This document shows, in pieces, positions 3,873-48,292 of a stretch of DNA of 64,000 bases. Both the position numbers and the translations under genes were made by a program. The notes beneath the pieces are model-generated. The model was not told the DNA's origin. It did not search any database and was given only the letters and a program-made list of their open reading frames with translations. This stretch comes from Giardia intestinalis (taxonomy: Eukaryota). Position 1 is the stretch's first letter. Every line of letters begins with the position of its first letter. The stretch is from NCBI GenBank assembly GCA_000002435.2, contig CM018793.1. One strand, 5' to 3'.

Positions 3873-3889
3873 GAAGTCCAGATTTATTA

Positions 3890-4564: not shown

Positions 4565-4591
4565 CTCTAAATTTAAAAGATTCACAGCGCC

Positions 4592-4933
4592 ATGCAGCCG
4601 TGGAACCCCGATTACCTCCCCCTCTATAAGGCTGTGAATAAAACGATGCAGAAGACGAGGTATACGACGCCGGATGCTCTGCTCAAAAGTGAGCAGGAGC
4701 TCTTTGGGCCCCTATTATCCAACCGTTTTGATCACCCAACGGCTTCCCCATTTTGCACGCGATACTGCGACCTAACTCTCGTTCCAGCTCCATACATGCT
4801 TCCCGAAGGTAGCATCCCTTTTTCAACGCCCGTCGCAGGATCTGTTTTGATGAGTGCTAACGCATCCACCAAAGCAACCATCACGGCCCTTCATGACCTC
4901 CCGGGTTATCTGGAGCAGCTTCAGCAGAAGTGA
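4592..4933 (+). CDS. small hypothetical ORF (113 aa) in the gap between two divergent genes
   Basis: ATG start, no domain, sits in a 378-nt spacer. It could be spurious. Confidence 0.25.
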   Translation: MQPWNPDYLPLYKAVNKTMQKTRYTTPDALLKSEQELFGPLLSNRFDHPTASPFCTRYCDLTLVPAPYMLPEGSIPFSTPVAGSVLMSANASTKATITALHDLPGYLEQLQQK

Positions 4934-4963
4934 TCGGAAGGAGTTTAGGGCCTCAAAAATTAA

Positions 4964-5665: not shown

Positions 5666-5749
5666 CGGCAACGCCTGTAACATCCTAGCCCCACACCAGT
5701 GCGTGCCAGTAGAGCTGTGGTGGATCAGTTCAAGAGTAAATGGGGATGT

Positions 5750-7951: not shown

Positions 7952-8005
7952 GGAGATTTTTTTGTGTGCTGCTCAAATTCTGAGACGTAGCCTGCGGCAG
8001 CTACC

Positions 8006-28535: not shown

Positions 28536-29129
28536 CTAATTCTCAAAAATGTCTCCGCACGGGGTCCAATACGACGTTTGGGGATTCTTTGTCTTGAGGA
28601 CCGGGTTTTGAACGCAGGTCGTCTGATGCACCGAATAGTTTCCTGCTCCAATGTCTTGCTGCATGGAGTTGAAGTTGTACTTGCGGGGCTTCACCTGGGC
28701 GCACATCTCTTGTGTATTCAGCGGTGTGCTACCCAAACTAATCCTTCCCGTCTCGTCCTGCTCTTTGTGGATCCGGTCATACCTCTTTGCAATGCTCTGA
28801 ACTCTCCCTGCAGTTGCCAAAACTGGACCCTCCGGGACTGTTAGGTCTCCCACACCCGCAAACTTCGTTGTGTGAGTCTTGCATTGCGGTCGTAGGTTAA
28901 ACGTTATGTCGAGCTTTTCTGTGCGCTGCTTCACTGGAGCTGGCTGCTCGTAATACTTGGGCGCTGTGTCCTTAAGTGTCCGCGAAAAGTCCTTGTCGTG
29001 CTCATCGGCCGGGCAACCGTGCCTTTGGGTGCGAGTCGTATTTGCATAGCCACTCATTTTGAGAGCTCCAGTGGAGTTGACAAAATCATTTTCGCGTAGG
29101 TTGTCCTCTTCCGTATGGTAGTAGCGCAT
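28536..29129 (-). CDS. hypothetical protein (197 aa)
   Basis: ATG at 29127..29129 with a strongly A/T-rich upstream spacer. Confidence 0.45.
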   Translation of the reverse strand: MRYYHTEEDNLRENDFVNSTGALKMSGYANTTRTQRHGCPADEHDKDFSRTLKDTAPKYYEQPAPVKQRTEKLDITFNLRPQCKTHTTKFAGVGDLTVPEGPVLATAGRVQSIAKRYDRIHKEQDETGRISLGSTPLNTQEMCAQVKPRKYNFNSMQQDIGAGNYSVHQTTCVQNPVLKTKNPQTSYWTPCGDIFEN

Positions 29130-29232
29130 TCCCTCCTCAAAATTCGTGTCCTGCGGGATTTTTTGAATTATAGATATTTAAGGATCAATAATTGGCGCAC
29201 AAGGTACCTTGGATTCCATTCGGCGCTGCCGA

Positions 29233-30027
29233 TCATGGCGGCTCCGTGTTTGTTAAGGGATTCGGCTTACTAAGTGACACTAATCTTGCACTAAACCGAT
29301 CTTCATGGCGCTGCATGCTTGACAAAATCTGTTCGGCGTCAATTGTAAGACATCGGTTCAATGGGCTTTCAAGCTTCTCTCTGGAGTACCGCGCGCCTAT
29401 CTCTGAAAGCCTTGTATAACAAGGGCTAGCACTTCTTGCGGAGTCACCTTCTGTGACAGTTTGAGGCCCTGCAATAGGAAACAGTGGGCGACATGTTGCT
29501 AATCCTTTCTGAACTGGGGCCTTTTCATCAAATAGCGATGCTGTCTTCTTTTGTATCGACCTCTGAAACTGAGTTACTTGTGACCCTGGCTTTGGACGCG
29601 CAGGGATCGTAAAGGACTCACGATCGTCGACCTCAACATCCTGAATCTCCCTGCTCTGCCTTTCAATTGACAAGCGGTATTTGGACCATCCATCTGCACT
29701 CTGTCCGCTGGCCCTTGGCGCCCTTTTTGCCCAGTCCTTAACAATAAGGGATTGATTTCGGATGTTTCTTTTGGTTTCCTCTTGACGCATCAGAAAGGCC
29801 AATCTAGACTCTCTGCGCCTCTCTGCCAAGTGCTGTAAATATTGCGCCTCCTCTGGATCAAGGAAAAGACTAGAGTAAAAGGGACGTACATTCCCATCTA
29901 CTATGCGTTTCATTTCGCGGGACAGTGGCTGCACATGGTCTCCCTGAGTGTAATGAGGCTGCATGGCACCACTGACACCGCTAGATGTCAGATCTGTCGC
30001 CTTAAATTGGAGGTTTTTGTTATACAT
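29233..30027 (-). CDS. hypothetical protein (264 aa from the ATG at 30027)
   Basis: The ORF-track start at 30045 is a GTG. The first ATG is at 30025..30027. The gene lies just outside the left inverted-repeat boundary. Confidence 0.45.
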   Translation of the reverse strand: MYNKNLQFKATDLTSSGVSGAMQPHYTQGDHVQPLSREMKRIVDGNVRPFYSSLFLDPEEAQYLQHLAERRRESRLAFLMRQEETKRNIRNQSLIVKDWAKRAPRASGQSADGWSKYRLSIERQSREIQDVEVDDRESFTIPARPKPGSQVTQFQRSIQKKTASLFDEKAPVQKGLATCRPLFPIAGPQTVTEGDSARSASPCYTRLSEIGARYSREKLESPLNRCLTIDAEQILSSMQRHEDRFSARLVSLSKPNPLTNTEPP

Positions 30028-30165
30028 TTTACATCCTGAGTTCACTCCACTAACCAGTCAATTCCAGTGCTACTCCGCTAAGTTTCCTGTCTATAGGCGC
30101 GCTTCTGAATTCATACAAGCAAGCTCCTTTAATCCCTGACCATACCAGGAGACAGAAATAGGTCA

Positions 30166-33100
30166 CTCATGCGAACCGCCGCGCTGGACGGCCTCTCTCA
30201 CTCAGTTTCAATGCTTCGGTGCCGCGTATCTCTGGCGAAAACGGAAGAAGGCGGGCACCCCAGCACCCGACCCTCTGCGCCTTTGTAGGATGAGCGGTAC
30301 CACAGGCATGAAAGGAGGGGCCCTCACACCCACCGCCTCAGTGAAACTCCCTGCTGAAGAGAGCATGCTGCAGTGACGGGCCCCAAGATGGCTGACGTTA
30401 TCAGTAAAACTCTCCCTAACTGAGTCGCTTAAAGAATACAGAAACGGCTCACGAACGCGCCACTTCGTCGACGGGACTACGCCTCTAGGAACCTCCCGAC
30501 TTGTCTCCGTTACGTTGTCCACGGCGCCAAAGGCTGTGAGCGGCATCCCTGCATCTCCCGTTTGAAGAGCTTTTCCACGGGTAAGGAGCTCGAGCGATAC
30601 ATTTGGAAGCGTCTCTCCCGCCTCGGGCCCTCTCTACGCAGCCTCATTCGTCAAGCAATGCCCCAGTCGAAGGCCCCCTGTTGCCCTTCCATGCCTTTGT
30701 GATCGGCTAGTATTTCAGATCATACTACACCAAACCCTGGTGTCCAAGTGCAGGCGTTCCACATGGGCCACCACTGTTGCCTGTTATCCCCTCCAGTAAA
30801 GACGACGCTAGACCGGAGCACCTTCAAGCTCCTTGGAAGTCTTCAGATACAGCTCTTAGTTCTCGTCGCCAGAGTCACATCTGATTAGGATTAGCAAAGA
30901 TGAAAACCAGAACGCCATTACCATAACCAGGGCATGATAGAACTGGGTGGCCTCTACCATGCAGCAGGAAACAGATCCGTTCTCTCTGTGTCTTGTGCTC
31001 CCAGAAAAAACGGAACTCTCTATCACCAGCTGTCCCGGGTTCAGTCACAAATCCAAGGGATGCATAGATCACGACTCGTACCGATACACTGTGGATGCTG
31101 CAGCTCTCACAAAGAAGATGTCTCGACGCCATAACAAGAGCAGAGACCTCATGTGCACACATGAGCACCTGATAAAGGGTGTAGAGCTGATGCACGTCTT
31201 AGCTGAGAGATTGGGTGCGTTTCTGAGCACGCTGGCTGACATCAGATCGAGGGAATCCTACCTGTTCGCTGATCTAAATGCGTCAACCTAGGACGGCGCC
31301 CAGGAAGCATCTAGCCGAAGCAGAACACCCCATGTTGAGCGGCACCAGATGACAGTCACTCAAGCATGAGCAGGACGAGCATCTGCCCGCTCTGCACAAA
31401 ACTCACTGGAGCCAGAGCTGTCCAAATGTACTGCGGCACAGACAGCAAGTGCAAGGTGCTACTGCGCGAAAGGATGGAGATGGCAGAGGAGATGCACCTC
31501 GTCACACTGTGGACCGCTACATGAGCAACACCCACCAGAAGGTTCCGAACAAGAATAGGCCACCGAGCGCATGAAGGACCCCCGGCGAAGAGTAGCTGCC
31601 GCCCCATGGGGCTCCTCTCCCACGGGCCCCCTCGACCCGGACTCCTCAGAGGGGATCAGGGTAGCGTACGGGCTGCACCCTGGAGGGACACGAGCCCCCT
31701 GTTCTGCAGCCAGCGGAGAGCACGGGCATCTCTCCCAAGGTAACTGACGACGAGATGACCCGGGGGTCCGTCCATGGGTTCTCGAGGTCTCCTGGACCTC
31801 GCCTAGATCTGCGTACTGGAGGTCCTCATCCCCAAGAACGAGGCAAGCATAACCTGTGGAGCGACCACGACGGCTCTTCACAGATACTGCCGGGCCATCT
31901 GAAGTCTCAGGCACTGGACACTGGGGCCTGCATGCACATATAGTATGCGCTCGTATGCGCACACGAGACTGAGGAAGCCAGGCGGTCTCGCTCGATTACA
32001 GGGCGCCCTCAACAGCAGCCCCGGTCCTGCACAGTCTCGATCAGGGGAACGTGCCCCTCGCTCTAAGGAGCTACACGAGACCTTCCTCTGGCCACAGCAC
32101 ACATGGACTCAGTCCCGTGCAGTGTTCCTCAGGGACCCTCTAGGTATGCTCCTATGCTGCGCTGGACGGAACGCGCTCACTAAGCAGCTGAAGGAGGTGC
32201 CCCCTCAGTGCCTGCGCCGACGACGTACTGATCCTGCGCGACGACAACAACGAGGCAATGAGGTTGGCAAACCCACGGACTGACGATCAACACAGACAAC
32301 TTAAGAGCACCGAGGGGGTAGGAGGGCTCCTTCCTGGGTGTCCGGTCTCGAGGAGCGGCTACCCACGGCCTCCAAGGAGATAGAGAGGGTAACGAAAAGG
32401 TTGCAACTGTGTCAATCGCCCACCACCCAAGCCAAGCTGATCTGGATAGACTCACCACGCGACCCCTACGGATCCCTCGGAGGGCAGGCCTGCCCTCTGG
32501 ACGCCCGGCTCGAGCAACAGCGGACCGAGCTCCTGGCTACGCAGGACAGCGGCAGTCGGGAGTCCACCACAAGCAGCTGCGCGGTGCTTGACACCTCGAC
32601 GTGAGACGTGGCACATGGGCAGGCTGCCAGCGGGACAGCCTCGTGGTGAGCAACGCATCGTACACGAAACGTGCCCTGGTCGCTCCGATGCTTCAGATAA
32701 CGCCTCTCGGAGAGCTGTGACCGGGCCAGCCTCTCCGGCTGAACGACTCATGGCTCCACGTACACTCTGCGGTACGGATGGGTGCAGACCACACCAGCCG
32801 AGCCGGCACACTGCACAGGGTGTGGACCTGCGAGTGTGTACTGGCTGCTGACCACCTGGCACCACAGGTGCACTGCGGTTCATGAGCAGAAGGGCGAGCC
32901 GGGCGTCTCCTCCGCGCCAACCAGGGGTCGACATGAGGGTCCACGGGCACACGCTATAATCCAGGAGGACGCATGGCGAACGCACCCCGACGGTAGGATC
33001 GATGGTCCACTCCATGAGGAGGCGAGAAGGAACCCGAGTCGGCATTCCGAGGCCATGACACATGCGATCTTCGTCGTGGAGCACTACACCCTCAAGGCCA

Positions 33101-33414
33101 GACCGCCACGACTTGCGACAGGGCCCTGGGGCAGCGGTACCCACCAGGCGCCAGGCAGCAGCCGGCCCCATGGAGGTTGAGCAAAGGAAGGGAGAAGTCC
33201 ATCGAAGGCGCTGTGGAAAACTAGCAACAGCACGAAAGGGAGCCAAACAACATTAAACCTCTTCTTTTCCCATCAGAGCTGGACGGAGTCTGAATTTCGA
33301 ATGTCGGATTTTGGATGGTAAACAAGGAAGGACCTATCTGATGAGGTGGCGGATCGCGCGATGGACTTACTCGGACAGCGGCTAGCAAACCAGCCTCGGT
33401 GAAACAGAGAGTAA
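30166..33414. repeat. left arm of 3,249-bp inverted repeat (mirror of 35463..38711)
   Basis: Reverse-complement identity was verified by eye at both ends and at three internal spots. All ORF translations in the two arms are letter-identical mirror pairs. Coordinates obey x+y=68877. Confidence 0.9.
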
Positions 33415-33828
33415 CTCTTGGAACTATCTACAATATGGGATACATGTACTGACACGGCAATCCACTTGATAGGGACGAATCCATAGGCAGTTACGGCCCA
33501 GAATAGGGTAAACTACAAGTGGATACCGTTGTTTCGTAAAGGAAAGTTTACCTAACTCCTTGGATTTTATTAACTGCTCTATCTTACACAAGTTGCGCAG
33601 GAGTCCCAGTCAGCTACAGCGTTATATAATCTACCGTGTGCTTGGAGCCAGAATTCGAAGCCATATATACACTAAGCACTGTGTGCTACAAACTAATTAT
33701 ACAGAGTAAGAAGGGTACAACCACCCAGCGGAGCATATACTCTGACTACGGTGAGCTATAAACAAGATAATGTGAATTATAAAATATTTACCGTCACACA
33801 CATTCCGTTTACAGCAATTAAAACAAAA

Positions 33829-35370
33829 ATGTCTTTAGCCAAACTCGATGATGGGCGTAGCAGTCTTGAAGCTGGTGGTAGGTCGAGCGTAGAAGCCCGT
33901 CTCTTAGATGGAGAGGCTGACCTTGCATGGGCTATCGTGAATGGGCACAAAGAGATAATGAGGGTACTTTCAAAGTACGTTGGCTGGACTGACCTCATTT
34001 GTGCCGCTGCTCTTGGGAGCGTGAACAGGGTCATGGAGCACCTTGATGAGTGTGAAGAAAGGGACGTCAATGGTAGGACAGCCCTTATGTGGGCTGCTAT
34101 GAACGGGCATAAAGAGGTAGTGGAGATGTTAGTGGAGTATGGAAAGAAGATGGTTGATGACCAGGGTCATACTGCTCTGTACTACGCTCTCAAGGGTGGG
34201 TCTCTTGAGATTGCCAAAATACTTATACCTCACGAAAACCCAACCGATGAGAACGGCATCACGGCGCTCATGCGGGCTGCTACCGATAGAGACGCCGAAA
34301 TGGTGGAATTGCTTATACCACTCCAGAAGGGAATGAAGGATAAGGACGACAACACAGCGTTCGTGCATGCCCTCAAAAACAAACATACGGACATCGCTCT
34401 GCTTCTCCGCGGACATGAATCCCCCTCGTGGACTCCCTTGATGTGTGCTGCTTTCATCGGTGATGTCAAAGTAGCCAGAAGATATTTATCTAGCAAAGAT
34501 GAGAAGAATAATGATGGTAACACTGCGTTAGTACTTGCTGCGAGGGCAGGACATAGAGATATCGTAGAGCTTATTGATCCTATTGATGAGAACGGCATCA
34601 CGGCGCTCATGCGAGCTGTTGGTAGAAATGACGTGGAGGCTGTAAAAGCACTCTTACCCATCCAGAGGGGAAGAAAAACATACAAAGAGGTCACAATAAG
34701 CGGATGGTACATGCGCAAAGGAACAGCTCTGATGATGGCTGCGGCACATGGATACGCAGAAATAGTAGAACTGCTAGCAGAGCACGAAAAGGGAGAGAAA
34801 GTAGGCGGTTGGACCGCTCTCATATTCGCGGCACGGTGCAATCGTTCCAATGACCCCCTGGTGGACTATTCTAAGTGCGTTGAGCTCCTGGTAAAGCACG
34901 AGGGCGACATTTCAGGGTGGACGGATCTCATATATGCCGCTTACCGTGGCGATATTGACGCAGTCAGAAACAACCTTCATATGAAGGGAAGCCAGGATGC
35001 TGGTGGGTGGACAGCGCTTATGTATGCAGCAGCACGAGGGCACGAAGCGATTGTAGAGCTGCTCAAGCAAGAAACTCGTATGAAGAATAACGATCATCAG
35101 ACTGCCCTCATGTGGGCAGCACGCAATGATCATCCAGAGTGCGTCAGGCTCCTAATGAAGGACGAAGGCGGCATGCAAACGACCAAGGGCTGGACCGCCC
35201 TTATGAACGCAGCATATAGCAACACCGTGGAGTGTGCAAGGCTTCTTAAGGAAACCGAGAAAGATCTGAAGACAACCTGCAGCTGCCATGGTCACTCGCC
35301 TGGTACCACTGCTCTCGACATCGCTAAGAAGAAGGATCACAAAGAGATAGTAGACATCCTTTCAAGCTGA
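33829..35370 (+). CDS. ankyrin-repeat protein (Giardia protein 21.1 family), the only gene in the loop between the inverted repeats
   Basis: About 14 ankyrin units (G.TALM.AA..GH..IVELL). The ORF-track start at 33751 is a GTG. The ATG at 33829 is preceded by aaaacaaaa. Confidence 0.8.
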   Translation: MSLAKLDDGRSSLEAGGRSSVEARLLDGEADLAWAIVNGHKEIMRVLSKYVGWTDLICAAALGSVNRVMEHLDECEERDVNGRTALMWAAMNGHKEVVEMLVEYGKKMVDDQGHTALYYALKGGSLEIAKILIPHENPTDENGITALMRAATDRDAEMVELLIPLQKGMKDKDDNTAFVHALKNKHTDIALLLRGHESPSWTPLMCAAFIGDVKVARRYLSSKDEKNNDGNTALVLAARAGHRDIVELIDPIDENGITALMRAVGRNDVEAVKALLPIQRGRKTYKEVTISGWYMRKGTALMMAAAHGYAEIVELLAEHEKGEKVGGWTALIFAARCNRSNDPLVDYSKCVELLVKHEGDISGWTDLIYAAYRGDIDAVRNNLHMKGSQDAGGWTALMYAAARGHEAIVELLKQETRMKNNDHQTALMWAARNDHPECVRLLMKDEGGMQTTKGWTALMNAAYSNTVECARLLKETEKDLKTTCSCHGHSPGTTALDIAKKKDHKEIVDILSS

Positions 35371-35462
35371 TCCCAGAGTGAATGACAGACCCTTTTGCTG
35401 CACTCCACGCTAGTTATGGATCGTACATTATCTCTCTTGATGTCTAGTGGTACTCTACGCGT

Positions 35463-38400
35463 TTACTCTCTGTTTCACCGAGGCTGGTTTGCTAGCCGCT
35501 GTCCGAGTAAGTCCATCGCGCGATCCGCCACCTCATCAGATAGGTCCTTCCTTGTTTACCATCCAAAATCCGACATTCGAAATTCAGACTCCGTCCAGCT
35601 CTGATGGGAAAAGAAGAGGTTTAATGTTGTTTGGCTCCCTTTCGTGCTGTTGCTAGTTTTCCACAGCGCCTTCGATGGACTTCTCCCTTCCTTTGCTCAA
35701 CCTCCATGGGGCCGGCTGCTGCCTGGCGCCTGGTGGGTACCGCTGCCCCAGGGCCCTGTCGCAAGTCGTGGCGGTCTGGCCTTGAGGGTGTAGTGCTCCA
35801 CGACGAAGATCGCATGTGTCATGGCCTCGGAATGCCGACTCGGGTTCCTTCTCGCCTCCTCATGGAGTGGACCATCGATCCTACCGTCGGGGTGCGTTCG
35901 CCATGCGTCCTCCTGGATTATAGCGTGTGCCCGTGGACCCTCATGTCGACCCCTGGTTGGCGCGGAGGAGACGCCCGGCTCGCCCTTCTGCTCATGAACC
36001 GCAGTGCACCTGTGGTGCCAGGTGGTCAGCAGCCAGTACACACTCGCAGGTCCACACCCTGTGCAGTGTGCCGGCTCGGCTGGTGTGGTCTGCACCCATC
36101 CGTACCGCAGAGTGTACGTGGAGCCATGAGTCGTTCAGCCGGAGAGGCTGGCCCGGTCACAGCTCTCCGAGAGGCGTTATCTGAAGCATCGGAGCGACCA
36201 GGGCACGTTTCGTGTACGATGCGTTGCTCACCACGAGGCTGTCCCGCTGGCAGCCTGCCCATGTGCCACGTCTCACGTCGAGGTGTCAAGCACCGCGCAG
36301 CTGCTTGTGGTGGACTCCCGACTGCCGCTGTCCTGCGTAGCCAGGAGCTCGGTCCGCTGTTGCTCGAGCCGGGCGTCCAGAGGGCAGGCCTGCCCTCCGA
36401 GGGATCCGTAGGGGTCGCGTGGTGAGTCTATCCAGATCAGCTTGGCTTGGGTGGTGGGCGATTGACACAGTTGCAACCTTTTCGTTACCCTCTCTATCTC
36501 CTTGGAGGCCGTGGGTAGCCGCTCCTCGAGACCGGACACCCAGGAAGGAGCCCTCCTACCCCCTCGGTGCTCTTAAGTTGTCTGTGTTGATCGTCAGTCC
36601 GTGGGTTTGCCAACCTCATTGCCTCGTTGTTGTCGTCGCGCAGGATCAGTACGTCGTCGGCGCAGGCACTGAGGGGGCACCTCCTTCAGCTGCTTAGTGA
36701 GCGCGTTCCGTCCAGCGCAGCATAGGAGCATACCTAGAGGGTCCCTGAGGAACACTGCACGGGACTGAGTCCATGTGTGCTGTGGCCAGAGGAAGGTCTC
36801 GTGTAGCTCCTTAGAGCGAGGGGCACGTTCCCCTGATCGAGACTGTGCAGGACCGGGGCTGCTGTTGAGGGCGCCCTGTAATCGAGCGAGACCGCCTGGC
36901 TTCCTCAGTCTCGTGTGCGCATACGAGCGCATACTATATGTGCATGCAGGCCCCAGTGTCCAGTGCCTGAGACTTCAGATGGCCCGGCAGTATCTGTGAA
37001 GAGCCGTCGTGGTCGCTCCACAGGTTATGCTTGCCTCGTTCTTGGGGATGAGGACCTCCAGTACGCAGATCTAGGCGAGGTCCAGGAGACCTCGAGAACC
37101 CATGGACGGACCCCCGGGTCATCTCGTCGTCAGTTACCTTGGGAGAGATGCCCGTGCTCTCCGCTGGCTGCAGAACAGGGGGCTCGTGTCCCTCCAGGGT
37201 GCAGCCCGTACGCTACCCTGATCCCCTCTGAGGAGTCCGGGTCGAGGGGGCCCGTGGGAGAGGAGCCCCATGGGGCGGCAGCTACTCTTCGCCGGGGGTC
37301 CTTCATGCGCTCGGTGGCCTATTCTTGTTCGGAACCTTCTGGTGGGTGTTGCTCATGTAGCGGTCCACAGTGTGACGAGGTGCATCTCCTCTGCCATCTC
37401 CATCCTTTCGCGCAGTAGCACCTTGCACTTGCTGTCTGTGCCGCAGTACATTTGGACAGCTCTGGCTCCAGTGAGTTTTGTGCAGAGCGGGCAGATGCTC
37501 GTCCTGCTCATGCTTGAGTGACTGTCATCTGGTGCCGCTCAACATGGGGTGTTCTGCTTCGGCTAGATGCTTCCTGGGCGCCGTCCTAGGTTGACGCATT
37601 TAGATCAGCGAACAGGTAGGATTCCCTCGATCTGATGTCAGCCAGCGTGCTCAGAAACGCACCCAATCTCTCAGCTAAGACGTGCATCAGCTCTACACCC
37701 TTTATCAGGTGCTCATGTGTGCACATGAGGTCTCTGCTCTTGTTATGGCGTCGAGACATCTTCTTTGTGAGAGCTGCAGCATCCACAGTGTATCGGTACG
37801 AGTCGTGATCTATGCATCCCTTGGATTTGTGACTGAACCCGGGACAGCTGGTGATAGAGAGTTCCGTTTTTTCTGGGAGCACAAGACACAGAGAGAACGG
37901 ATCTGTTTCCTGCTGCATGGTAGAGGCCACCCAGTTCTATCATGCCCTGGTTATGGTAATGGCGTTCTGGTTTTCATCTTTGCTAATCCTAATCAGATGT
38001 GACTCTGGCGACGAGAACTAAGAGCTGTATCTGAAGACTTCCAAGGAGCTTGAAGGTGCTCCGGTCTAGCGTCGTCTTTACTGGAGGGGATAACAGGCAA
38101 CAGTGGTGGCCCATGTGGAACGCCTGCACTTGGACACCAGGGTTTGGTGTAGTATGATCTGAAATACTAGCCGATCACAAAGGCATGGAAGGGCAACAGG
38201 GGGCCTTCGACTGGGGCATTGCTTGACGAATGAGGCTGCGTAGAGAGGGCCCGAGGCGGGAGAGACGCTTCCAAATGTATCGCTCGAGCTCCTTACCCGT
38301 GGAAAAGCTCTTCAAACGGGAGATGCAGGGATGCCGCTCACAGCCTTTGGCGCCGTGGACAACGTAACGGAGACAAGTCGGGAGGTTCCTAGAGGCGTAG

Positions 38401-38711
38401 TCCCGTCGACGAAGTGGCGCGTTCGTGAGCCGTTTCTGTATTCTTTAAGCGACTCAGTTAGGGAGAGTTTTACTGATAACGTCAGCCATCTTGGGGCCCG
38501 TCACTGCAGCATGCTCTCTTCAGCAGGGAGTTTCACTGAGGCGGTGGGTGTGAGGGCCCCTCCTTTCATGCCTGTGGTACCGCTCATCCTACAAAGGCGC
38601 AGAGGGTCGGGTGCTGGGGTGCCCGCCTTCTTCCGTTTTCGCCAGAGATACGCGGCACCGAAGCATTGAAACTGAGTGAGAGAGGCCGTCCAGCGCGGCG
38701 GTTCGCATGAG
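35463..38711. repeat. right arm of 3,249-bp inverted repeat (mirror of 30166..33414)
   Basis: See left arm. Confidence 0.9.
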
Positions 38712-40115
38712 GAATTTATTCTGACAGCATTGAAATTCTTCTACAGGGGAGACCTCCTCCACTTCCACAGGATGCCCGTGGAGAGCGGCGCAGACGGCCC
38801 CCGCTCTGTCGGCACGTGCGAGCTGGCCCCTTCGACACACACGTTCTGCGCCCTGTACGAGACAGAGGGGGCCTTGCGGTGCGTCTTCACGGCCGTGGAC
38901 AGGGTGCGCCTGTTCCTCTGCATGGCGAGCACGCAGGTGAGTTCCGGCCGTCGTGCTGGGGTCGGGGGGAAGTCGCAGAGGGACCAGGAGGGGAAGCCTC
39001 GAACGGGTTAGCACCGCATAGGACTTCCTTCCATTGCCTAAAACACGCAAGGGTGCACGCGTCCACCCACTGAGCAGGCAGATGAGGCGATGACTGATGG
39101 CAGGGTGGCCAAGACTCACTTCTGCCCTCGGCCGAGCGACACATGAAATGAAGAGCGTTTGCATCTTAAACAGATAGATATTGTGTTTTTGCGAGGCGTC
39201 TTGTCTGGGCGGTTTTGGGTTGGAGGGGCTAGAGTTATTATTTGTGCGAGGGTTGTCATGCTCTAGTGGAAGAAAGAATACAACTCGAGATATGATTGAT
39301 TCTAGAAGAGTCAACCCCAGTGAATACACATCTCCCAAAGCATCAAGAGACGTGGGTGTTACACTTTCTTGTCGGTCAAAGAGGGAACCATTAGTAGAGA
39401 GGAAATCATAGCATCTGAGCGTCGATTCAGGCGCCCTGTACACGAGGGTGCACGTTGTTCCCGTTGAAATGGGGGAGTAGTGATCGGCGGAAAGAACCTC
39501 AGGCTCAGCGTAGTTAGCAGAAGCACTTGGAGAGGAATAAACACAATACTTAGCCATCCCCAGGTCTGCAAGAAAAGCAGAGCCGTTGCCATCCAGAAGA
39601 ATGTTCGACGGCTTGACGTCTCTGTGTGCGATCCCCAGTCTGTGAAGGTTCCGAAGACAAGTAACCACAGAGTGCCAGAAGAACACCATCTGGGACAGTG
39701 TAAAGCTGCTTACTAAGTTGTACGTTCGGAACCTTTCACAGTCGTGTGGATAGAGCGGAGTGACAAGGCAGATTAGCGAAGAGCAGTTCTCGAAATGCTT
39801 CGCAAAGGGTAAGTCTTTCGTTGTATCATCGAGTCGTAATTTGAAGCTCGAGATAAGATCGATTGCAGGATTCTTAAAAGGCTGGCCGCCAGCCGTAACC
39901 TGAGCCAGGTATGCGAGTAAGGTCACTTCACGCAGCACCAGATGGTTGAAAACGCCTGAAATGCCGACAGCCTTGAGAGCAACAGGTTTGCCCGTCTCCT
40001 TATCTATCCCCTTGTAGATCGTGCCGTACGCGCCTGCTCCGAGGTACCCTGTGGGTGACCAGTCGATCGCATACCGCTCGAGGGAAGAGGGGATGGTCGG
40101 CTGTGGCTCGGTCAT
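38589..40115 (-). CDS. Ser/Thr protein kinase (catalytic motifs intact); the 3' end of the ORF is uncertain because it runs through GC-rich low-complexity sequence into the right repeat arm
   Basis: GAGAYGTIYKG, VALKAV, HRDVKPSNILL, DLGMAK, YRAPE. The ORF-track start (40217) is a TTG that reads through the tRNA. The ATG at 40113..40115 gives MTEPQPT. The kinase domain ends near 39300. Confidence 0.6.
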   Translation of the reverse strand: MTEPQPTIPSSLERYAIDWSPTGYLGAGAYGTIYKGIDKETGKPVALKAVGISGVFNHLVLREVTLLAYLAQVTAGGQPFKNPAIDLISSFKLRLDDTTKDLPFAKHFENCSSLICLVTPLYPHDCERFRTYNLVSSFTLSQMVFFWHSVVTCLRNLHRLGIAHRDVKPSNILLDGNGSAFLADLGMAKYCVYSSPSASANYAEPEVLSADHYSPISTGTTCTLVYRAPESTLRCYDFLSTNGSLFDRQESVTPTSLDALGDVYSLGLTLLESIISRVVFFLPLEHDNPRTNNNSSPSNPKPPRQDASQKHNIYLFKMQTLFISCVARPRAEVSLGHPAISHRLICLLSGWTRAPLRVLGNGRKSYAVLTRSRLPLLVPLRLPPDPSTTAGTHLRARHAEEQAHPVHGREDAPQGPLCLVQGAERVCRRGQLARADRAGAVCAALHGHPVEVEEVSPVEEFQCCQNKFLMRTAALDGLSHSVSMLRCRVSLAKTEEGGHPSTRPSAPL

Positions 40116-40130
40116 CAAAACAAGGGAAAG

Positions 40131-40203
40131 TGCCGGGGCCGGGAATCGAACCCGGACCGATCGGACGACAACCGAGCGCGCTAGACCGTTACGCCACCCC
40201 AGC
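40131..40203 (-). tRNA. tRNA-Asp (anticodon GUC), 73 nt
   Basis: I folded it by hand. Acceptor GCUGGGG/CCCCGGC with one G.U pair and discriminator A. U8. D-arm GCGU/GCGC with loop AACGGUCUA (A14, G18 G19, A21). Anticodon stem CUCGG/CCGAU with loop UUGUCGU. Variable loop CGGU. T-arm CCGGG-UUCGAUU-CCCGG. Confidence 0.65.
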
Positions 40204-40217
40204 CAGGGAGGAAACAA

Positions 40218-41285
40218 ATTAAAGATTATATAAAATATTTGGTTTAATAGAAATTATTTGTAATAGAGTATTTGTAATTTTATTGGTTTATCCTAACTTT
40301 TTCTGACAATCGTTCACTCCCTAAAATAGACACCTTTTAGGCACTAGCATCGTAAACGGTGCAGGACATAAGATCTAACATGCGTTGAAAGTTTCATCAC
40401 ACTAAATCTTCATAACCAACAAACTGGACAAAGTTCTTTTTGGAACTATTTAACTATCTGTCCAGTGCCTTAAAAAGATTTACTCTTCATTGCTATTGCC
40501 AAATTCAGGGTAATTCTAGCATTATACTCTGTACAACTCGGTCTCTTGCCAGATAAACATATTTACTATCGGCAATAACTTTGCTAGGTTACATGTAATA
40601 TAGCGAATGTTTATCGTACAATAATTGAAATTAGGCCTGTTGTCCACAAAAGTAATTTATTCTTAAAGTTACTCATTCTCTTCTAATGGAGTACTGTGCA
40701 CACAGTTCCTCTCTACTTATAAAAAGTTGACATTTGGATGCAACAACATCTTAACCAGCCTTGTAGAAAGAATCTCTATGTATGAAGCACTTCTAAGAAA
40801 TGTATTATAGTAACAACTTAAATAACATCAGACCTGTTTTAGTGTTTACCGTTGTGTTAGTCAATATTTTTATAACCATAAACAATTCTAGAGCAATTCT
40901 CCACGACAATATACCGCAGACTTCATAAGTGGTAACTATAAATTTATTCTACAATGGCACTACTACGGTTTTAAAGAAAATTGCTTCCTCATGAAACTTA
41001 CTGACTGGTTAGAAACAAAACTATTTATCATTAATTGATAATCATTAGAACTCCAGGCAGTATCTTTCAAATAACTCCCCGTTGCTTCTAATATATAGTG
41101 AGGGAATATTTACCACTTGTAAGATTATTTGAAAAGTTCATTAAATAGCACTTCCAATATCAGCATCTCTTACATTGAATAAATTTAGATGTTATTTGAA
41201 CAGAAAATTATCTTTAAACTTACTATTAATAGTCATCATATAGTGCTAAAAGCAATGGAGACAAGGATATCTGATAGAGGAGCGT
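40218..41285. other. about 1.07-kb strongly AT-rich, ORF-free island, compositionally anomalous for Giardia
   Basis: By eye about one third G+C, against about half in the flanking genes. No ORF longer than 60 aa. Bounded by the tRNA on one side and a GC-rich retroelement remnant on the other. Confidence 0.6.
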
Positions 41286-41299
41286 CATGTATGAGTTTC

Positions 41300-44200
41300 T
41301 ATATGTGGTGCCGCTGAGGCTTGTCGCGGTGCGGTCCAGAAATCTCACGGGCAAGCCTCGCTCAGTCCCTGACCAGCTCGGAGACGAAGGTTGGCTGCGG
41401 GCGTGCACATCGATCTTTTCGAGGTTTTCTTACGGGCTCGCTGGTCTACTAGGGTGCCTCTCCCTGTTCTCCCTTCACGATTGGCGAAGCTCTGGTCTTT
41501 GTTGTCATTCTCAATACTGTCCATGTAGATCAGCAGCAGCTAACGGGGCCCTCTCCACTGGCTGGGATTCCACTCGGTTGTGTGTCCAGTCTTGCGCCCC
41601 CTTTCGGTCGTTGTCGACAGGTCCCAGGGATGGATTCATTCGGTTGTCAGAAGTAGGATGACAGGAGGCGGTCGCTCTGGGTGGCCAGGCTTTCGGCCCG
41701 GTCGCGTCTGATCAGCTTCGTCAGGTGCTCGTTCGCCTCTGCAGCCATGTGGGCGATGGCGAAGGCAGCCCGGACAGAGAGCTTCTCGACGTCCACGTGG
41801 AGCTCCTCGAGGTGCCTCTTGGACCTGGGGTGGAGGGATCCGTCCGTCTCATAGATGATCGGGAGCGTCCCGTCCCTGTACTTCTTGGCCTTCTCGCTGT
41901 GGTATCCATCTGGCGGGGCTGGATGACACCCACGTCCACTGCCTTGCACTTGTCGACGAGCCAGATGTCGGGCTTCTGGTTCTGGTCGCTGAGGTGGCTG
42001 TGGGTCTTGACTTCCAGCTCCGGTTGAGCTTCCCCGAGACGCGGAGGTACAGGTACGCGACGATCATGTTGTGCCTCGTGGTCGAGGGTCTGCCGTGTGG
42101 CAGCCCGGGCAGGTGCCTCTTGTCTGCGCCATGATCGAGCCATCTCTCTCCTTCAGGGCCCTTTCCTCCTCGGTCAGCACGCCGCCGCTCTGTCCGGAAG
42201 CTGATGTGTGCGCGTGAGGAGGCGGTTGAAGTAGGTCCCCTTCCCCTGCAGTGCCTGGCCGCCCACCGACAGCTCCACCGGGTCCCTGGTCCCCTTGTTG
42301 ACGTCCGGGGAGGCCCATGCCCTCCGCAGCTCGTCGTGGCAGAGCCCCGGCATGAGCAGGCCCAGGCCGCTCTTCTCCTTCGGGTACGCCAGGAAGTCGA
42401 CCAGGCGATCGCAGCTTCTGCTGGTTAGCTTGTTGAAGCCTTGTGCGACGTCTGTCGAGCTCCTCGTAGTCCGCCTTGTCCGATGTCATCTCGACCAGGG
42501 GGGCGTAGTTCACCATCGGGACCACGCAGAGTGACAGCAGGATGAGCTTCTGGTGGGTGGTTATGGGGGCAGTCTCGGCACCTGCGATGGCCTTTGGTGC
42601 GGGACTGGCTGGAGTGGGGGACACCGGGTGGCTGAGGAAGGTCACCTCCTCGCCCGCCATGGTGGACTTGCATTTGTCGCTCCTTATCGTCAGGTCCATA
42701 GCCTGCTGTACTATTGCGCCTGCTGGGTAGGCCTCATCGTGGAGCGCCACGATGTCGTCTGCATAGGCAAGGAAGGCGATGCCTCTCTCCGTGAGGCGTC
42801 TCAGAGGCGCTCGATGGCCATGCAGAAGAGGAGCGTGCTGAGCGGGTCGTCCTGGGGGACGCCGCAGACCCCGCACTTCACGTCCTTGCTGTGCCTCAGG
42901 TCGAGGAAGTTCCTGATGTAGTCGACCAGGACCTTCGGGATGCCCGCCTCGTTCAGGGCTCTGACGACCTCTGCCCTCGGGAGCGAGTTGAAGGCCTTCT
43001 TTGTGTCGAGGGAGACGGCGTGCACCTGTCCTGCTGATGAGCTCGTGGGCCCTCCTCATGCCTACCGCGTATGCGTTCTGCATGAAGGCGATCTGTTCGC
43101 ACGAGAGGTAGTTGGCATGCTTGATCAGCCGCTTCAGCAGGACGCGGTGGAAGATGTTTGTCACCGTCTCGCCATCGCGATCGGACGGTATCCGTCGGAC
43201 TCCTTCGGGATGAGGATCGCCCGGAACTCGAACATGGCCATCACGTCGGACATCGCCTCGGGGTGGGTGGTCAGCTCGTTGTACGCCTGCGTGAGGTACT
43301 TCACGAAGTCGTCGTTCTGCTTCCTCGCTTTGAGCTGGACCGCCCGAGGCCTTCTTGTTGAGGGTCCCAACAGGGCCTTCCTCATTTCTTCTTCGGTTGC
43401 CGGCTCCAGCCCGTTGAGCTCATCGATGGAGGGTAGTCAAGGCTAACGTAGCCTTCGGGGGGACGCACGGGTGTAACGCGCTGAGGGCGGCCTTGGCTTT
43501 CTCCGGCTTGATGTCAACCATGGGCGTATCATCAAGGGCGCGGAGAGCCTTGGCAACTGCTCCGAAGCTCAGCGCGTTACTCACCCTGTTTGCTATCCGG
43601 CGCCTCGCCTTCTCGGGGTCTGGGTCTGCCTTACTCTGGGACTGCTCCGTGGTGTTGCTTGAGTCCTCCAGGCCTCCTACCAGGGCGTTCAGGCCCCTGA
43701 TTGCGGGGAGCGCGACCCCAGTCCCGGGCTGCTCGATGCTCGCGATCATGCGCGCACCCTGGTGGATGAGCATGGCAGCTGTCTGGTTCGGTATGTGGGA
43801 CGGAAGGATCGGTTTGTCGTCGCCCGGTACTCTGTGTCTGTCGTTGTTTGCTTCTCTTAGATGCTCGGTTGGTTGCTTGGCACCCTCGCACGGTAGGCCA
43901 CAGAGCCAGCGTGTGTGTCCTGCCGAGAGGGCAAACGTCTTCGGAGTGGTCTCCCAAGTAGAACCTCACGATTGCTCTCTGGGGCCCGGAGGTACGATCT
44001 TGCGTTCATGATGTGGATCGGGTCTTCGCGGGCTCTCCTTCGCCTCAGATCCAGCTGTGCACACTCCCAGTCTGGGCACACACCCGCAGAACAGCTGAGG
44101 AACGCAATAGCTCCTCCCTTCCACTACTGTGGTCATTATCATATTCCATAGCCAACCCTCGTCTCCGGACATCGCCAAAAATTGAGTGGGAATTTACTCG

Positions 44201-44347
44201 CGAGATTTGCGGACAGCACCCGCAGGCGAGGGCCCCAGCAGCACACCACTGGAAGCAACCGGTGGGTGGAGTAAATGATGAGCGAGGATGCCGTTCAACA
44301 TAGTGACTCGTACGATGGACTTACTCAGACTGCGGCCAGCAAACCAA
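41300..44347 (-). mobile_element. degenerate non-LTR retrotransposon remnant (dead GilD/Genie-like element) with a frame-shifted reverse transcriptase
   Basis: All minus strand. RT motif 1 ILIPKESDGYRPIAM is near 43165..43210. Motif A LDTKKAFNSL is near 42985. Motif B GVPQDDPLSTLLF is near 42869. Motif C FLAYADDIVAL is near 42765, followed by SDKCKS...FLSHP. These lie in different frames with an in-frame stop at about 43158. Confidence 0.6.
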
Positions 44348-44397
44348 CTTCTTTTTGAAGAGAAACGACAGATTTATTCATGAGACTACAGAGCAGT

Positions 44398-45279
44398 CTA
44401 TTGGTCATTGCAACCATTGACACTAGGTGTACTGCCCCTAAGGAGAGACGCTATCTCGAGGTATCCCCTAGAAGTAATCTTGTCAAAGAAATATTCATTA
44501 GACTTGTCTATCAGATGCCCCTCTTTTTCTAATAGAAGCTTTACCACTTCTAAGTGACCCTTTAGCGCTCTATGTTCAAGAGCAGTCATCTCATTCCTAT
44601 CCTTTACACCCCCCTCCAGATCTACTAACAATCTTGCTATTTCCACGTTCCCCATAGAAGCCGCGTTCATAAGCGCAGTCATACCTACCATGTTTTGTGC
44701 ACCACTGTCGTATCTTATTACCAACTTTGCTGTCTCTATGCAACCGCGTGTGGCTGCTCGCATAAGCCTCGTGTCGCCGAATGTATCGGTTGGCTCAAGA
44801 ATATTCACAATAATTTTGTGCCCTGCCTCCTTAGCAATCATCAGGGCCATCTTGCCTTCGCTGTCGATTAAGTTCTCCTCGTACGGAATCAGAACAGAAG
44901 CAGCCTCCGCATGGCCCTCCTGTGCGGCGATCATCAGAGCAGTACGGCTGTTCTTGTTTCTTCTCCCACATTCGTAAGGGGCAAGAATTTCAACTACCTC
45001 AGGGTGGTTGTTGTGTGCGGCGTGCATGAGTGCAGTCCAGCCGTTCTTGTCCTGGAGGCCCCTCTCTTCCTCAACAAGCAACTCGACGGGATCAGCGTGC
45101 CCCTGCTCGTCGCGCTGATCAACACCGAGTCTTTCTTCAAGCAGCATCCGGACGGTCTCTGTGTTATTCGTGTGCGCGGCACGCATCAGCCTGGGCAGCA
45201 AAAGGAGGCTGGACTGAGGGCCAGCCATATTCACTCTGTCATCGAACTGTGCAAGCCTACTCTCCAGTGCCTTAATCAT
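44398..45279 (-). CDS. ankyrin-repeat protein (293 aa), probably the C-terminal part of a disrupted NEK-ankyrin gene
   Basis: About 8 ankyrin units. ATG at 45277..45279 lies immediately downstream of the stop of the kinase-tail fragment. Confidence 0.55.
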   Translation of the reverse strand: MIKALESRLAQFDDRVNMAGPQSSLLLLPRLMRAAHTNNTETVRMLLEERLGVDQRDEQGHADPVELLVEEERGLQDKNGWTALMHAAHNNHPEVVEILAPYECGRRNKNSRTALMIAAQEGHAEAASVLIPYEENLIDSEGKMALMIAKEAGHKIIVNILEPTDTFGDTRLMRAATRGCIETAKLVIRYDSGAQNMVGMTALMNAASMGNVEIARLLVDLEGGVKDRNEMTALEHRALKGHLEVVKLLLEKEGHLIDKSNEYFFDKITSRGYLEIASLLRGSTPSVNGCNDQ

Positions 45280-45281
45280 AG

Positions 45282-46294
45282 CTAGATGTTCCTTACTTTG
45301 GTCTTCAAGTGCGTCGATCTAGTGGATTTAGTCTTAACATCCTCTTCCAGCAGCGCGATCCTGGCGTTAGCGCCATTCAGCGCAGCCTCCAAGGATCCGC
45401 ACTTATACTTCAGCATCACGCACTGACCCCCCAACTCACTAACTGGGATGTCGAATGTAGTGAGCGTCTCATGCAGCTCCCTGACCATCGGCCTCCTCTC
45501 TGGCTCCAGCACGAATATCCTCTCCAGAACACTCTTTATGAATCCATCAGTGAGACCGCTCAGGTCCGGCCTCCACCCGTCACGAAGACCTCTGCCGGCT
45601 CCTTGCCCCCCAAGAAGTCCGGTCTCCTCAGAGTTACTAATTCATAAATGATGACCCCGAGGCTCCATACGTCGGAGGCAGGGCTGGCCTCGTTGTGGAG
45701 GAGCACCTCGGGGGCAACGTATGCCATTATTCCTATGAGAGTGCTCCCGCATCTCAGGGCGTCCTTGCAGAGGCTGAAGTTGGCGATGACGAAGCGCTCT
45801 CCGTCTGCGCTAATAAGGACGTTGGCAGGCCTGAGGTTGCGGTGGACAAACCTCCTAGTATTTGCTCCATTGACACCGTGGAGGTAGGCGAGGGCGGCGG
45901 CAAGCTGCCTCACAATTGAGAGGATCACAGCGATAGGGACGAGGTTCTTCCTTCGCTTGTGCTCGGCGAGGAGGCGCTCAAGGGTCTTGTCGTGCCGGTC
46001 CATGACGACATAGATGAGGCCCTCGTCTTCGACTACTTGGTGGTGCTTGAGGACTCCTGGGTGGGAGAGGGTAAGGATGACGGTCAATCTTGTCTTGATG
46101 GCGTCCAGATCCCCCTTGTCCAGGCCGTCGATGAGGATCTCCTGCACAGCGAGGTCCGGAAAGTCCTTGAGGGAGTAGACTGTCACCATAGTGCTTTCAT
46201 TAAGCACATCACCTAACCGCTCATGAAGCTCCCTAGGGGTGAACGGTAAGACACTGACAGCTGTTGTTGCAGGCTCAGACGAGGAAGTGTCCAT
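45282..46294 (-). pseudogene. NEK-like kinase domain split by a frameshift near 45520..45560 and a stop at 45282 (pseudogene or sequencing error)
   Basis: Fragment 45560..46294 carries HRNLRPANVL, ANF (DFG position), APEV and DVWSLGVIIYEL. Fragment 45282..45512 carries the subdomain XI-like LEPERRPMVRELHE in another frame. Confidence 0.5.
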
Positions 46295-46599
46295 CCTGGT
46301 ATTATTTTGGTAATCTACCGTTTTGGAAACGATCCTTTCCACAGGAGTTTATGTCTACAAGTCTACAGCGGCCCTGTATCTGTGGGGGCTTCTGCATAGG
46401 AGATGAGAAGGCCACCTGCGCGACCGTTTCACCCACCGGCGTTCCAGCGCTGACCGAGGGTGAGAAGGCCTGCTCCCCTGACCTCTGCGGACACGGGTGG
46501 TTGTGTGCCCCACTGACAGCCAGCACTTCACCCTAGTGGCTGACCATCCCTTTGTACAGCTGAAGGGAGACTCTAGTCCCCGTCGGATGCAATCAACAG

Positions 46600-47271
46600 T
46601 TAAGCGCGTTCACTCACAAGCTTCCTGGGCTGCATCTGCAAGTATGGATCTACAATACCCTCACTCTCGAGAAAAGATGCTACCTCGGAGTTATTCCATC
46701 TATTGGCCATATGGATGGCATCTACGCCACTTATGTCCCTCTCCTTCTCCAGTAACAACTTGACACAGTCCAGATGATCATGCCTTGCTGCAAGCACGAG
46801 GGCAGTATAACCTCTGCCCTTCTGCATGCCGCCCTCAATCTTCAGGAGTAGTCTCACGACCTCGGTACGGCCAACAAGTGCCGCCCACATGAGGGCTGTC
46901 CACTCCTCACTGTCCCTCATGCCGCCCTCGCACCTCATCAGCAGCTTCACCGTCTCAACGTTTCCAAGCGCTGCGGCGACCATCAGGGCCGTCCCATCGT
47001 ATATCTCTACTCTCCCTGCCTTGACAAACCTCGCCATCATCCTTGCCTGATAAGGGATGTAGCGCTTCACCGCATCCACGTCGTTCCTCTTAGCTGCCTC
47101 CATAAGTGTGGTGACGCCGTCCTCGTCCACACTGCCTTCATCATCTGTCTGTGGAGACTCGGCGGGGCTGCTCTTACCTGCGCCCTCTTCGCTCGTGTCC
47201 TTCTCTGGCGCGAGGGGCGGGGCGCAGTCGTGCTTCTGAAGGAGTTGACCTGAATCATCCACAGACGACAT
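46600..47271 (-). CDS. ankyrin-repeat protein (21.1-like, about 224 aa); start could alternatively be the ATG at 47343
   Basis: Ankyrin units TALMEAA..NDVDAV.., TALMVAAALGNVETVKLL, TALMWAALVGRTEVVRLL. ATG at 47271 has aataaaa immediately upstream. Confidence 0.6.
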   Translation of the reverse strand: MSSVDDSGQLLQKHDCAPPLAPEKDTSEEGAGKSSPAESPQTDDEGSVDEDGVTTLMEAAKRNDVDAVKRYIPYQARMMARFVKAGRVEIYDGTALMVAAALGNVETVKLLMRCEGGMRDSEEWTALMWAALVGRTEVVRLLLKIEGGMQKGRGYTALVLAARHDHLDCVKLLLEKERDISGVDAIHMANRWNNSEVASFLESEGIVDPYLQMQPRKLVSERA

Positions 47272-47672
47272 TTTTATTCCATGGTCACAAAGGAAACGCG
47301 TGTACTGGTAAACTTGCGATTCACGGTATTGTTTACAGATCATCCAAGATAATTCACTTCACCGGTTATTTCCTGTGCCGTGCCCCTCTGTAGTAACAAG
47401 TTGACTGCTTAGGGGCAATGAACTCTCTGAGGCCTCTCTTCGGCAACCAGGAGCTCCCTGCTCTCGTGGGTGGAACCGACACCAGAACTAGTGCTCGTGG
47501 CGATCCAAGCAAGCCTCACTCATCCGACTGGGTCTACGTCGTCCTGTCCTGCAAGGCGTGCTTGATGGATGAATTGCGGCATCCGATCGTCACTGAGGGG
47601 GTTCCGCGGGCACGCACTGCTCGAGCATGTCTTAGAGCACCGCCTACAAGTCTATATACGGCACCAGTATGC

Positions 47673-47679
47673 GTTTACT
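47673..47679 (-). promoter_or_regulatory. putative poly(A) signal AGTAAAC, 20 nt after the VSP stop
   Basis: Plus-strand gtttact. Typical for VSP genes. Confidence 0.45.
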
Positions 47680-47698
47680 ACCTAAGTCACATCTAAAT

Positions 47699-48292
47699 CT
47701 ACGCTTTGCCCCGGCAGAGGAACCACCAGCAGAGGAAGCCGACGAGGCCCCCGACGACGATGACAGCGGCCACAGCGATGCCAGCTATGGCGCCCGTGGA
47801 AAGGCCGCTCTTGTTGACGCTAGAAGGCACGCACTTTTTATCATCACCTAGAACAAATCCGTCGTTACACTCTGTACACGTGCCGTCGGGACATGACTTG
47901 CAGTTAGGAAGATCGCAGCCAGCGGGCGCGTCCGCGCAAACACGCTCGTTCGCGGTGGGGCCGTACGGGCACTCGTCGTAGCATCCGCCCTTGTAGAGGC
48001 TGTGCGCGCCCGTGCATGCAGTGCACGTCCCTGCCTTATCGCTTGTACCGGCCGTGCACATGCCCGCGTCCGTCTTCGCCTTGCACTCCCCGTTCACCGG
48101 GACCTTGTCCCCTGTGCACTTGGAGCAGAAGGTCTGGCCCCCGATTTCCACGTTGCAGCTGTCGGCGGCGCAGTTTGTCGCGCCGGGGTTTGCGGCGGCG
48201 CACGGCGTTGGGTTTGTCTTTGCTTTACTTGCTGTTTGCGACGCCAAGGCCATTTGCAGGGCCAAGCTTACAAAAATAAGCTTATCGAACAT
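47699..48292 (-). CDS. VSP: variant-specific surface protein (short VSP, 197 aa)
   Basis: Signal peptide, repeated CxxC motifs, GGCY motif, a single C-terminal TM helix and the invariant cytoplasmic tail CRGKA. Confidence 0.85.
   Translation of the reverse strand: MFDKLIFVSLALQMALASQTASKAKTNPTPCAAANPGATNCAADSCNVEIGGQTFCSKCTGDKVPVNGECKAKTDAGMCTAGTSDKAGTCTACTGAHSLYKGGCYDECPYGPTANERVCADAPAGCDLPNCKSCPDGTCTECNDGFVLGDDKKCVPSSVNKSGLSTGAIAGIAVAAVIVVGGLVGFLCWWFLCRGKA

Follow-up and report, generated by a model that had tools for sequence, protein, structure and literature searches.

A motif shared by a large inverted repeat and a retroelement locus of Giardia intestinalis probably marks the termini of an old, dead non-LTR family

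The stretch of Giardia intestinalis DNA analysed here (the window; 64,000 nucleotides of contig CM018793.1, assembly GCA_000002435.2) carries a long inverted repeat whose inner arm ends share a short motif with sequence beside an element bearing reverse transcriptase (RT). This raises the question of whether the motif is the terminal sequence of that element and the arms are older copies of it, as was originally predicted, or whether motif and arms belong to something else. We consider it likely that the motif belongs to an old non-LTR family, now dead and here called arm-type, as the conserved core of its terminal region; two copies of the family would form the arms tail to tail, and a third, short copy would be split. 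As part of this whole model, and at the same level of confidence, the arm-type family is taken to be a separate family and only a distant relative of the Genie 2/GilD-like element that bears RT, here called RT-type. The window was compared with about 150 kb of other Giardia DNA, from loci picked for RT-type copies or for a kinase gene; the set from isolate DHA2 comprised six loci carrying RT relatives. The features of the window are collected in Table 1.

Table 1. Positions of the features in the window, with the evidence for each
Feature	Coordinates	Strand	Evidence
Diverged solo RT-type terminal repeat, immediately outside the left arm	30040..30154	+	nhmmer E = 0.007
First half only of the inverted motif, left arm	30159-30184	-	Motif HMM
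Left arm, putative near-complete arm-type non-LTR copy; 3' terminus ...GGTGAAACAGAGAGTAA at 33414	30166..33414	+	100% identical to 38711-35463
Putative vestige of RT motifs A–C, in a single frame (AVSLDY ... ACADDVLIL)	31982..32245	+	Pairwise blastp against P0002, E = 5.5e-4
Putative vestige of the C-terminal endonuclease side (IDGPLHEEARR against TDGSLHPKSKR)	32926..33033	+	E = 2.7 in the arm; stronger in L002
Motif, probable core of the arm-type 3' terminal region	33354..33397	+	Repeat search, family alignment, consensus search
Spacer of the inverted repeat, with an intact ankyrin-repeat gene at 33829-35370	33415..35462	+	Pfam Ank_2, E = 2.9e-85; ORF list
Right arm, putative second arm-type copy, inverted; 3' terminus 35463 faces the spacer	35463..38711	-	Identity, nhmmer
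Mirrored motif copy	35480-35523	-	Repeat search
Inverted motif copy on the right arm, at its outer (5') end, reaching 9-18 nt into the right flank	38693..38729	+	Motif HMM E = 0.1, 30/37
Left half of the candidate split arm-type 3'-terminal fragment, matching arm 33315-33347	41255..41295	+	Local alignment, suggestive
Younger RT-bearing element, Genie 2/GilD-like (RT-type)	41296..44275	-	RT ORF matches, DHA2 alignments
Degenerate 3' repeat of the RT-type element	41296-41400	-	HMM/alignment of repeat ends
Broken RT/endonuclease coding sequence of the RT-type element	41514-43415	-	tblastn
5' terminal inverted repeat of the RT-type element	44056-44275	-	Alignment to DHA2 copies
Right half of the candidate split arm-type fragment	44276-44370	+	Holds the third motif copy
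Third motif copy, within the short arm-type terminal fragment 44276-44370	44308..44351	+	84% over 44 nt; E = 6.5e-7
Ankyrin-repeat gene, stop codon ~30-50 nt from the third motif copy	44398..45279	-	ORF list, Pfam

In the repeat search of the window, the motif of the left arm (33354-33397) and its third copy (44308-44351) were 84% identical over 44 nt in the same orientation, and blastn of the arm against the window returned 31/34 identities at the motif (E = 6.5e-7). The match originally predicted was therefore real and correctly oriented, although the count of about 33/37 became 32/37 on recounting, over 33359-33395. The TGATGAG block said to accompany it was present at both sites (33339-33345 and 44276-44282), although the two spacings between block and core are unequal, by about 13 nt. 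The mirrored copy was found on the opposite arm (35480-35523), as expected. A 33-nt degenerate consensus of the motif found three sites in the window, where 0.00 were expected from 100 shuffles. Across the window and the ~150 kb of related loci, the motif was confined to the termini of one repeat family. The Rfam scan of the window found no family at the motif, its sole match being a tRNA at 40131-40203, and the predicted RNA fold of the 3'-terminal 100 nt was no better than that of shuffled sequences (z = +1.3).

The arms were 100% identical, with zero differences in the 3249 nt aligned by blastn (30166-33414 against 38711-35463); the 3258-nt repeat returned by the repeat search includes mismatches in its final 9 nt. 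Searching with the arm by nhmmer recovered homologues in four DHA2 loci, L001 (5599-6523), L002 (8537-7753), L003 (12939-14279) and L006 (1101-4359), with E-values from 6e-35 to 0. Arm-type copies were 0.1 kb, 0.9–1.4 kb or 3.3 kb long. Similarity stopped at one 3' terminus, ...GGTGAAACAGAGAGTAA, in the arm, in L003 and at two sites in L006 (the second being L006b), the common ending being GAGAGTAA(A/C), and the 5' extent varied. The inverted repeat has its inner boundary at this family terminus. The terminus includes AGTAA(A/C), which is like the polyadenylation signal of Giardia. The sense strand of the arm is A-rich. Arm-type copies were 61–76% identical to one another, compared with 85–88% among RT-type copies, indicating that the arm-type family is the older of the two. 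The arm ORF 32782-33177, compared with 1.8 billion proteins, matched one 68-aa fragment and nothing else.

Faint, putative vestiges of retroelement coding were found in the arm, with AVSLDY at 31982, ACADDVLIL at 32215 and IDGPLHEEARR at about 33000. The alignment of the arm frame to protein P0002 (E = 5.5e-4) is a single post-hoc pairwise comparison. Pfam gave no significant RT match for the three forward frames of the arm, tblastn with 24 relatives gave no match to the arm at E <= 0.01, and an RT family HMM found nothing significant in it. Because the arm alone fails these searches, its descent from a retroelement is argued by transitivity, by way of DHA2 copies that are better preserved, together with that one pairwise alignment. 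Among these, the L003 copy aligned to P0001 across RT motifs A–C (E = 7.4e-4), and the L002 copy gave two adjacent alignments to the C-terminal region of P0010/P0002 (tblastn E = 2.5e-4), a stretch that was also recovered at the DNA level (nhmmer E = 3.6e-6). The RT and endonuclease vestiges are collinear on the A-rich strand, at spacings resembling those of the RT-type element. The arms had been predicted not to be arbitrary duplicated DNA, and this is upheld, as they are probably decayed retroelement copies, with homologues in DHA2 that carry RT/endonuclease signal. Descent from a DNA transposon or MITE was considered and rejected, since six-frame translation revealed RT-like rather than transposase vestiges and no target duplication of fixed length was seen.

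The two ends of the arm are related to each other in inverted orientation. The 5' end of the arm matched the reverse complement of its 3' end at 24/32 positions (p = 0.002) and also matched the L001 and L002 copies at their 5' ends (p <= 0.002). L001 holds a 1.1-kb internally deleted arm-type copy in which the motif occurs twice, at 5388-5456 in inverted orientation (E = 7e-13) and at 6467-6533 in direct orientation; in L002 the motif lies at 7726-7792 and 11729-11782, with an RT-type element nested between. Past the identity tract, into the outer flanks of the arms, similarity to the inverted 5' motif was not significant (right flank p = 0.13–0.3). Judged from these alignments, the arm-type family has its own short terminal inverted repeats, of which some 35–75 nt are detectable. 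The complete arm-type element would have been about 3.3 kb long, with an A-rich sense strand, RT and endonuclease domains now reduced to faint vestiges, and these short terminal inverted repeats.

The RT-type element of the window is better preserved. Its ORF 42064-43164 (minus strand) contains AYADD (the YADD box) and matches Giardia 'reverse transcriptase/endonuclease' fragments, mostly from DHA2, at E-values down to 1e-104. Several of these proteins carry PF00078, and Pfam gave no match for the window ORF by itself. Matches of the 24 relatives within the window were restricted by tblastn to 41514-43415, and the coding sequence is split across several frames and ORFs both here and in the DHA2 loci. 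The element is 85–88% identical to the DHA2 copies. Positions 44056-44278 aligned to the 5' ends of those copies and, inverted, to their 3' ends, giving terminal inverted repeats of ~220 nt, which fits the earlier remark that dead Giardia elements were reported to carry such repeats. Other RT-type sequence was also found. The solo repeat outside the left arm (30040-30154) is collinear from the canonical terminus (GTTCACTCCAC; z = 5.5–7.9, p < 0.001); its junction with the arm is conserved in DHA2, and the remainder of the element behind it was not found. In L003 an older RT-type element (1918-8139) is bounded by terminal repeats, at 1918-2128 and 7939-8139, with ~64% identity to those of the young elements, and a younger copy (3449-6515) is nested within it. 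A further RT-type fragment lies at 48801-49083 on the minus strand (HMM positions 2353-2675, E = 9e-9), recognizable at the nucleotide level only. With the two arms, the RT element, the short arm-type fragment and the solo repeat, the description of 30–44 kb as a retroelement graveyard largely holds.

The short arm-type fragment is the third site of the motif. An nhmmer alignment placed arm 33348-33425 on 44302-44387, to the right of the RT-type element. To its left, 41255-41281 showed a weak match to arm 33315-33347, the sequence just upstream of the motif (p = 0.01, 2000 shuffles). The element is flanked by TGTATGAG (41288-41295) and TGATGAG (44276-44282), a possible but weak target-site duplication of 7–8 nt; none was seen around the L002 copy. 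Scored by profiles as a 3' or a 5' end, the 44.3-kb fragment obtained 15.6 and 14.3 bits respectively, which does not discriminate, and alignment was uninformative as to whether the short L001 and L002 copies are collinear across the RT insertion point. In the proposed order of events, an arm-type 3'-terminal fragment of ~100 nt would have been there first, as a 5'-truncated insertion or the remnant of a deletion. A younger RT-type element would then have inserted into it in opposite orientation, leaving ~40 nt on the left and ~95 nt on the right. From the sequence, then, the RT-bearing element probably inserted into a ~100-nt arm-type fragment at 44.3 kb.

The same site would also arise if the 44.3-kb motif were the remnant of a full arm in a paralogous duplicate of an 'arm - ankyrin gene - 2.7-kb block' segment, most of that arm having been lost by deletion or replacement upon arrival of the RT-type element. 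The match would then stem from segmental duplication rather than from an independent short insertion. In L006 an ankyrin pseudogene comes after the arm 3' end, its 5' part and the 2.7 kb beyond match window 44834-47758 at 78–85%, and the order is that in which motif, ankyrin gene and block follow one another in the window. Identity between the motif copy and the arm is also 84–91%, close to that 85% and above the 61–76% of independent copies. However, nhmmer detected no arm sequence to the left of 41255, the stretch separating the motif from the ankyrin stop codon resembled the corresponding flanks of neither the arms nor L006 (p = 0.19–0.9), and the two ankyrin genes are unlike in their 3' halves. 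We regard such a duplicate as unlikely, though credible, and favour the split arm-type fragment.

The proximity of motif and RT-type element invites the reading, made in the original prediction, that the RT-bearing element has the motif as its own 5'-terminal sequence and that the arms represent earlier copies from one and the same family. The motif is just 33–38 nt from the RT-type 5' terminal repeat, in the orientation expected were it inverted at the element's 5' end, and motif copies also lie 57 nt (L002) and about 220 nt (L006) past the 3' repeat. Alignment of eight repeat ends nevertheless gave one terminus, TTTACTCCACC, which in the 5' repeat of the window lies on the minus strand at 44275. 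This terminus ends both repeats of L002 and the repeats of L004, L006 and the window, with unrelated flanks, and it is shared by five related DHA2 copies whose flanks differ. Since each copy continues past the terminus into a different flank, the motif is external to the RT-type element. The element stops at 44275 and the motif begins 33–38 nt outside, so it is neither at the edge of the RT-bearing unit nor its terminal sequence. It is missing from the flanks of most other copies, including those in L001, L003 and L004, and the L002 copies of the motif belong to an arm-type copy whose body is present, antisense to the RT element.

Comparison of the sequences themselves agreed with this. In blastn of the arm against the whole window the 34-nt motif was the only similarity found between arm and remnant, and an HMM of the RT-type element found nothing in the arms at E <= 1. 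Pairwise comparisons of arm ends with RT-type terminal repeats gave non-significant p = 0.06–0.9, and a profile of nine RT-type terminal-repeat sequences recovered no arm-type end at E <= 100. A GCTGTCCG...AGTAA pattern, tried as a terminal homology between the arm-type and RT-type families, failed shuffle tests and the profile search. Without shared nucleotide sequence beyond the motif, the arms and the remnant represent different families rather than old and young copies of one. Of the prediction that the arms are older copies of the same or a related family, the decayed, related retroelement is retained and identity with the family of the remnant is given up. Membership of a single family is largely refuted and is, in our view, very unlikely.

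The inverted pair comprises 3249 nt at 100% identity around a 2048-nt spacer. Window 29057-33414 aligned to DHA2 L006 1-4358 at 95.9%, and the reverse complement of 38711-35005 aligned to L006 1110-4814 at 94.6%; from both alignments, DHA2 carries a single arm at the orthologous site. This arm combines the outer junction of the left arm with the inner junction of the right arm. In the proposed model the arms would be two arm-type copies placed tail to tail around the ankyrin gene. A pair of elements so placed predicts an inner boundary exactly at the 3' terminus and an outer boundary inside the 5' terminal repeat, and the duplication boundaries lie at the 3' terminus and within the 5' motif. 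As the boundaries coincide with element ends, the pair is best read as two element copies and not as an arbitrary segmental duplicate. The suggestion that the 3.2-kb pair is an enlarged version of a terminal inverted repeat is replaced by two whole elements tail to tail.

The perfect repeat might instead be an assembly artefact, for example from a chimeric long read, with one real arm. The absence of any difference over 3249 nt would suit this, as would the single arm of DHA2 and a short-read contig from another run that ends about 150 nt before the arm. Each arm, however, is bordered by unique sequence of its own within a chromosome-scale contig of 4 Mb, breaks at repeats are normal for short-read contigs, and 6.9% of the genome is duplicated in the WB assembly, in which identical inverted gene pairs have been described (PMC7000408). 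An artefact is thus highly improbable. That the motif match is chance similarity or a common low-complexity k-mer, as so short a core (34–44 nt) might allow, has a negligible probability and was rejected on the E-value of 6.5e-7, the zero matches expected in shuffles against the three sites found, the confinement to family termini and the recurrence at homologous positions of independent family members in DHA2.

Zero differences between the arms of WB, set against ~4% divergence from DHA2, indicate a recent duplication or retro-copy, or gene conversion. In the first case, the WB lineage would have gained an inverted duplication or retro-copy once the two isolates had diverged, and the spacer would then have flipped. 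In the second, an old pair lying tail to tail would have been homogenized by gene conversion, and DHA2 would later have lost the pair. Three of six RT-type copies (window, L002 and L006) abut or split an arm-type end, the nested or adjacent cases in DHA2 being L002 7726-11782 and L006 11322-11449. This hints at a target preference or at shared safe havens. A mechanism that joins the two observations, in which RT-type elements prefer arm-type terminal regions and endonuclease breaks at both motif-bearing ends seed the inverted duplication, appears distinctly unlikely. Read-through transcription of the perfect inverted pair could possibly yield a long hairpin RNA for Giardia Dicer/Argonaute.

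The genes around these elements were also compared. The DHA2 ankyrin gene beside the single arm (L006 4451-5692) is a fragmented chimera, its 3' part resembling the central ankyrin gene of the window (84%) and its 5' part the gene at 44398-45279 (78%), which suggests recombination between paralogs. On the minus strand at 38589-40115 lies a 508-codon ORF that is 100% identical to a WB protein and is annotated in WB as 'Kinase'. It is a truncated gene, whose homology to the gene of P15 and to Logan locus L009 stops at 39147. The orthologs are longer (545 aa in P15 and 607 aa in L009) and are followed by an SNF2 helicase gene. The last ~185 kinase codons (38589-39146) run through GC-rich sequence (38721-39146) and then into the right arm. 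The start codon of the kinase is immediately preceded by a tRNA gene (40131-40203, minus strand, Rfam 57 bits). The AT-rich sequence of ~1 kb that separates the kinase from the RT-type element (40218-41250, GC 0.38) forms an unusually long intergenic region for Giardia, with no similarity to any fetched locus.

Genie 2/GilD is reportedly a dead non-LTR retrotransposon family of Giardia lamblia, the subject of work by Arkhipova & Morrison in 2001 and by Burke et al. in 2002, and the latter are said to have given its terminal inverted repeats as 'up to 172 bp'. By description, the element at 41296-44275 is like it in its length of ~3 kb, its frameshift-broken RT with C-terminal endonuclease and its terminal inverted repeats, which at ~220 nt are longer than that figure. 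The arm-type family is similar to Genie 2/GilD in its length of ~3.3 kb, in the order of RT and then endonuclease vestiges, in its inverted termini and in being represented by dead copies only. Unlike the RT-type element of the window, to which it has no nucleotide similarity, it has shorter terminal repeats that are not detectably homologous to the 220-nt ones, and its copies are far more diverged among themselves than the RT-type copies. The Giardia genome is usually said to hold only three retroelement families. The arm-type family may be a fourth, older and wholly decayed one, with short inverted termini of its own. Genie 2/GilD occupies gene-poor regions near VSP genes (PMC2861651), and VSP genes lie beside RT-type copies in the fetched loci. 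A ~160-nt fragment at 47651-47821 is 72–83% identical to sequence at the 3' ends of VSP genes from four DHA2 loci, and in L003 this same sequence adjoins old RT-type terminal repeats.

In their behaviour, the elements share with nested and 5'-truncated non-LTR insertions the precise 3' terminus, a short 3' fragment, the nesting of younger in older copies and a possible short target duplication. They differ from non-LTR elements generally in having no poly(A) or simple-repeat tail and in their inverted terminal repeats, which are unusual for the class. The inverted arrangement also has precedents in WB, where Xu et al. (2020) described 19 identical inverted VSP pairs, with an RT remnant between four of the divergent pairs (PMC7000408). 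Here too identical inverted copies lie a few kilobases apart with one gene between, the differences being that retroelement relics are duplicated, a host ankyrin gene is enclosed and the boundaries are mobile element ends. Given the identical inverted pairs and the 6.9% duplication of WB, the pattern itself was already known.

The region therefore holds transposon debris of an ordinary sort rather than a new type of system. Little is added to general biology, as dead retroelements, nested insertions and identical inverted duplicates were already known in Giardia WB. For annotation, the arms carry spurious ORFs and the WB 'Kinase' model at 38589-40115 reads into the right arm. The polymorphism between isolates, with a pair in WB and a single copy in DHA2, could serve for studying inverted duplication or gene conversion in an organism where evidence for sex is scant.
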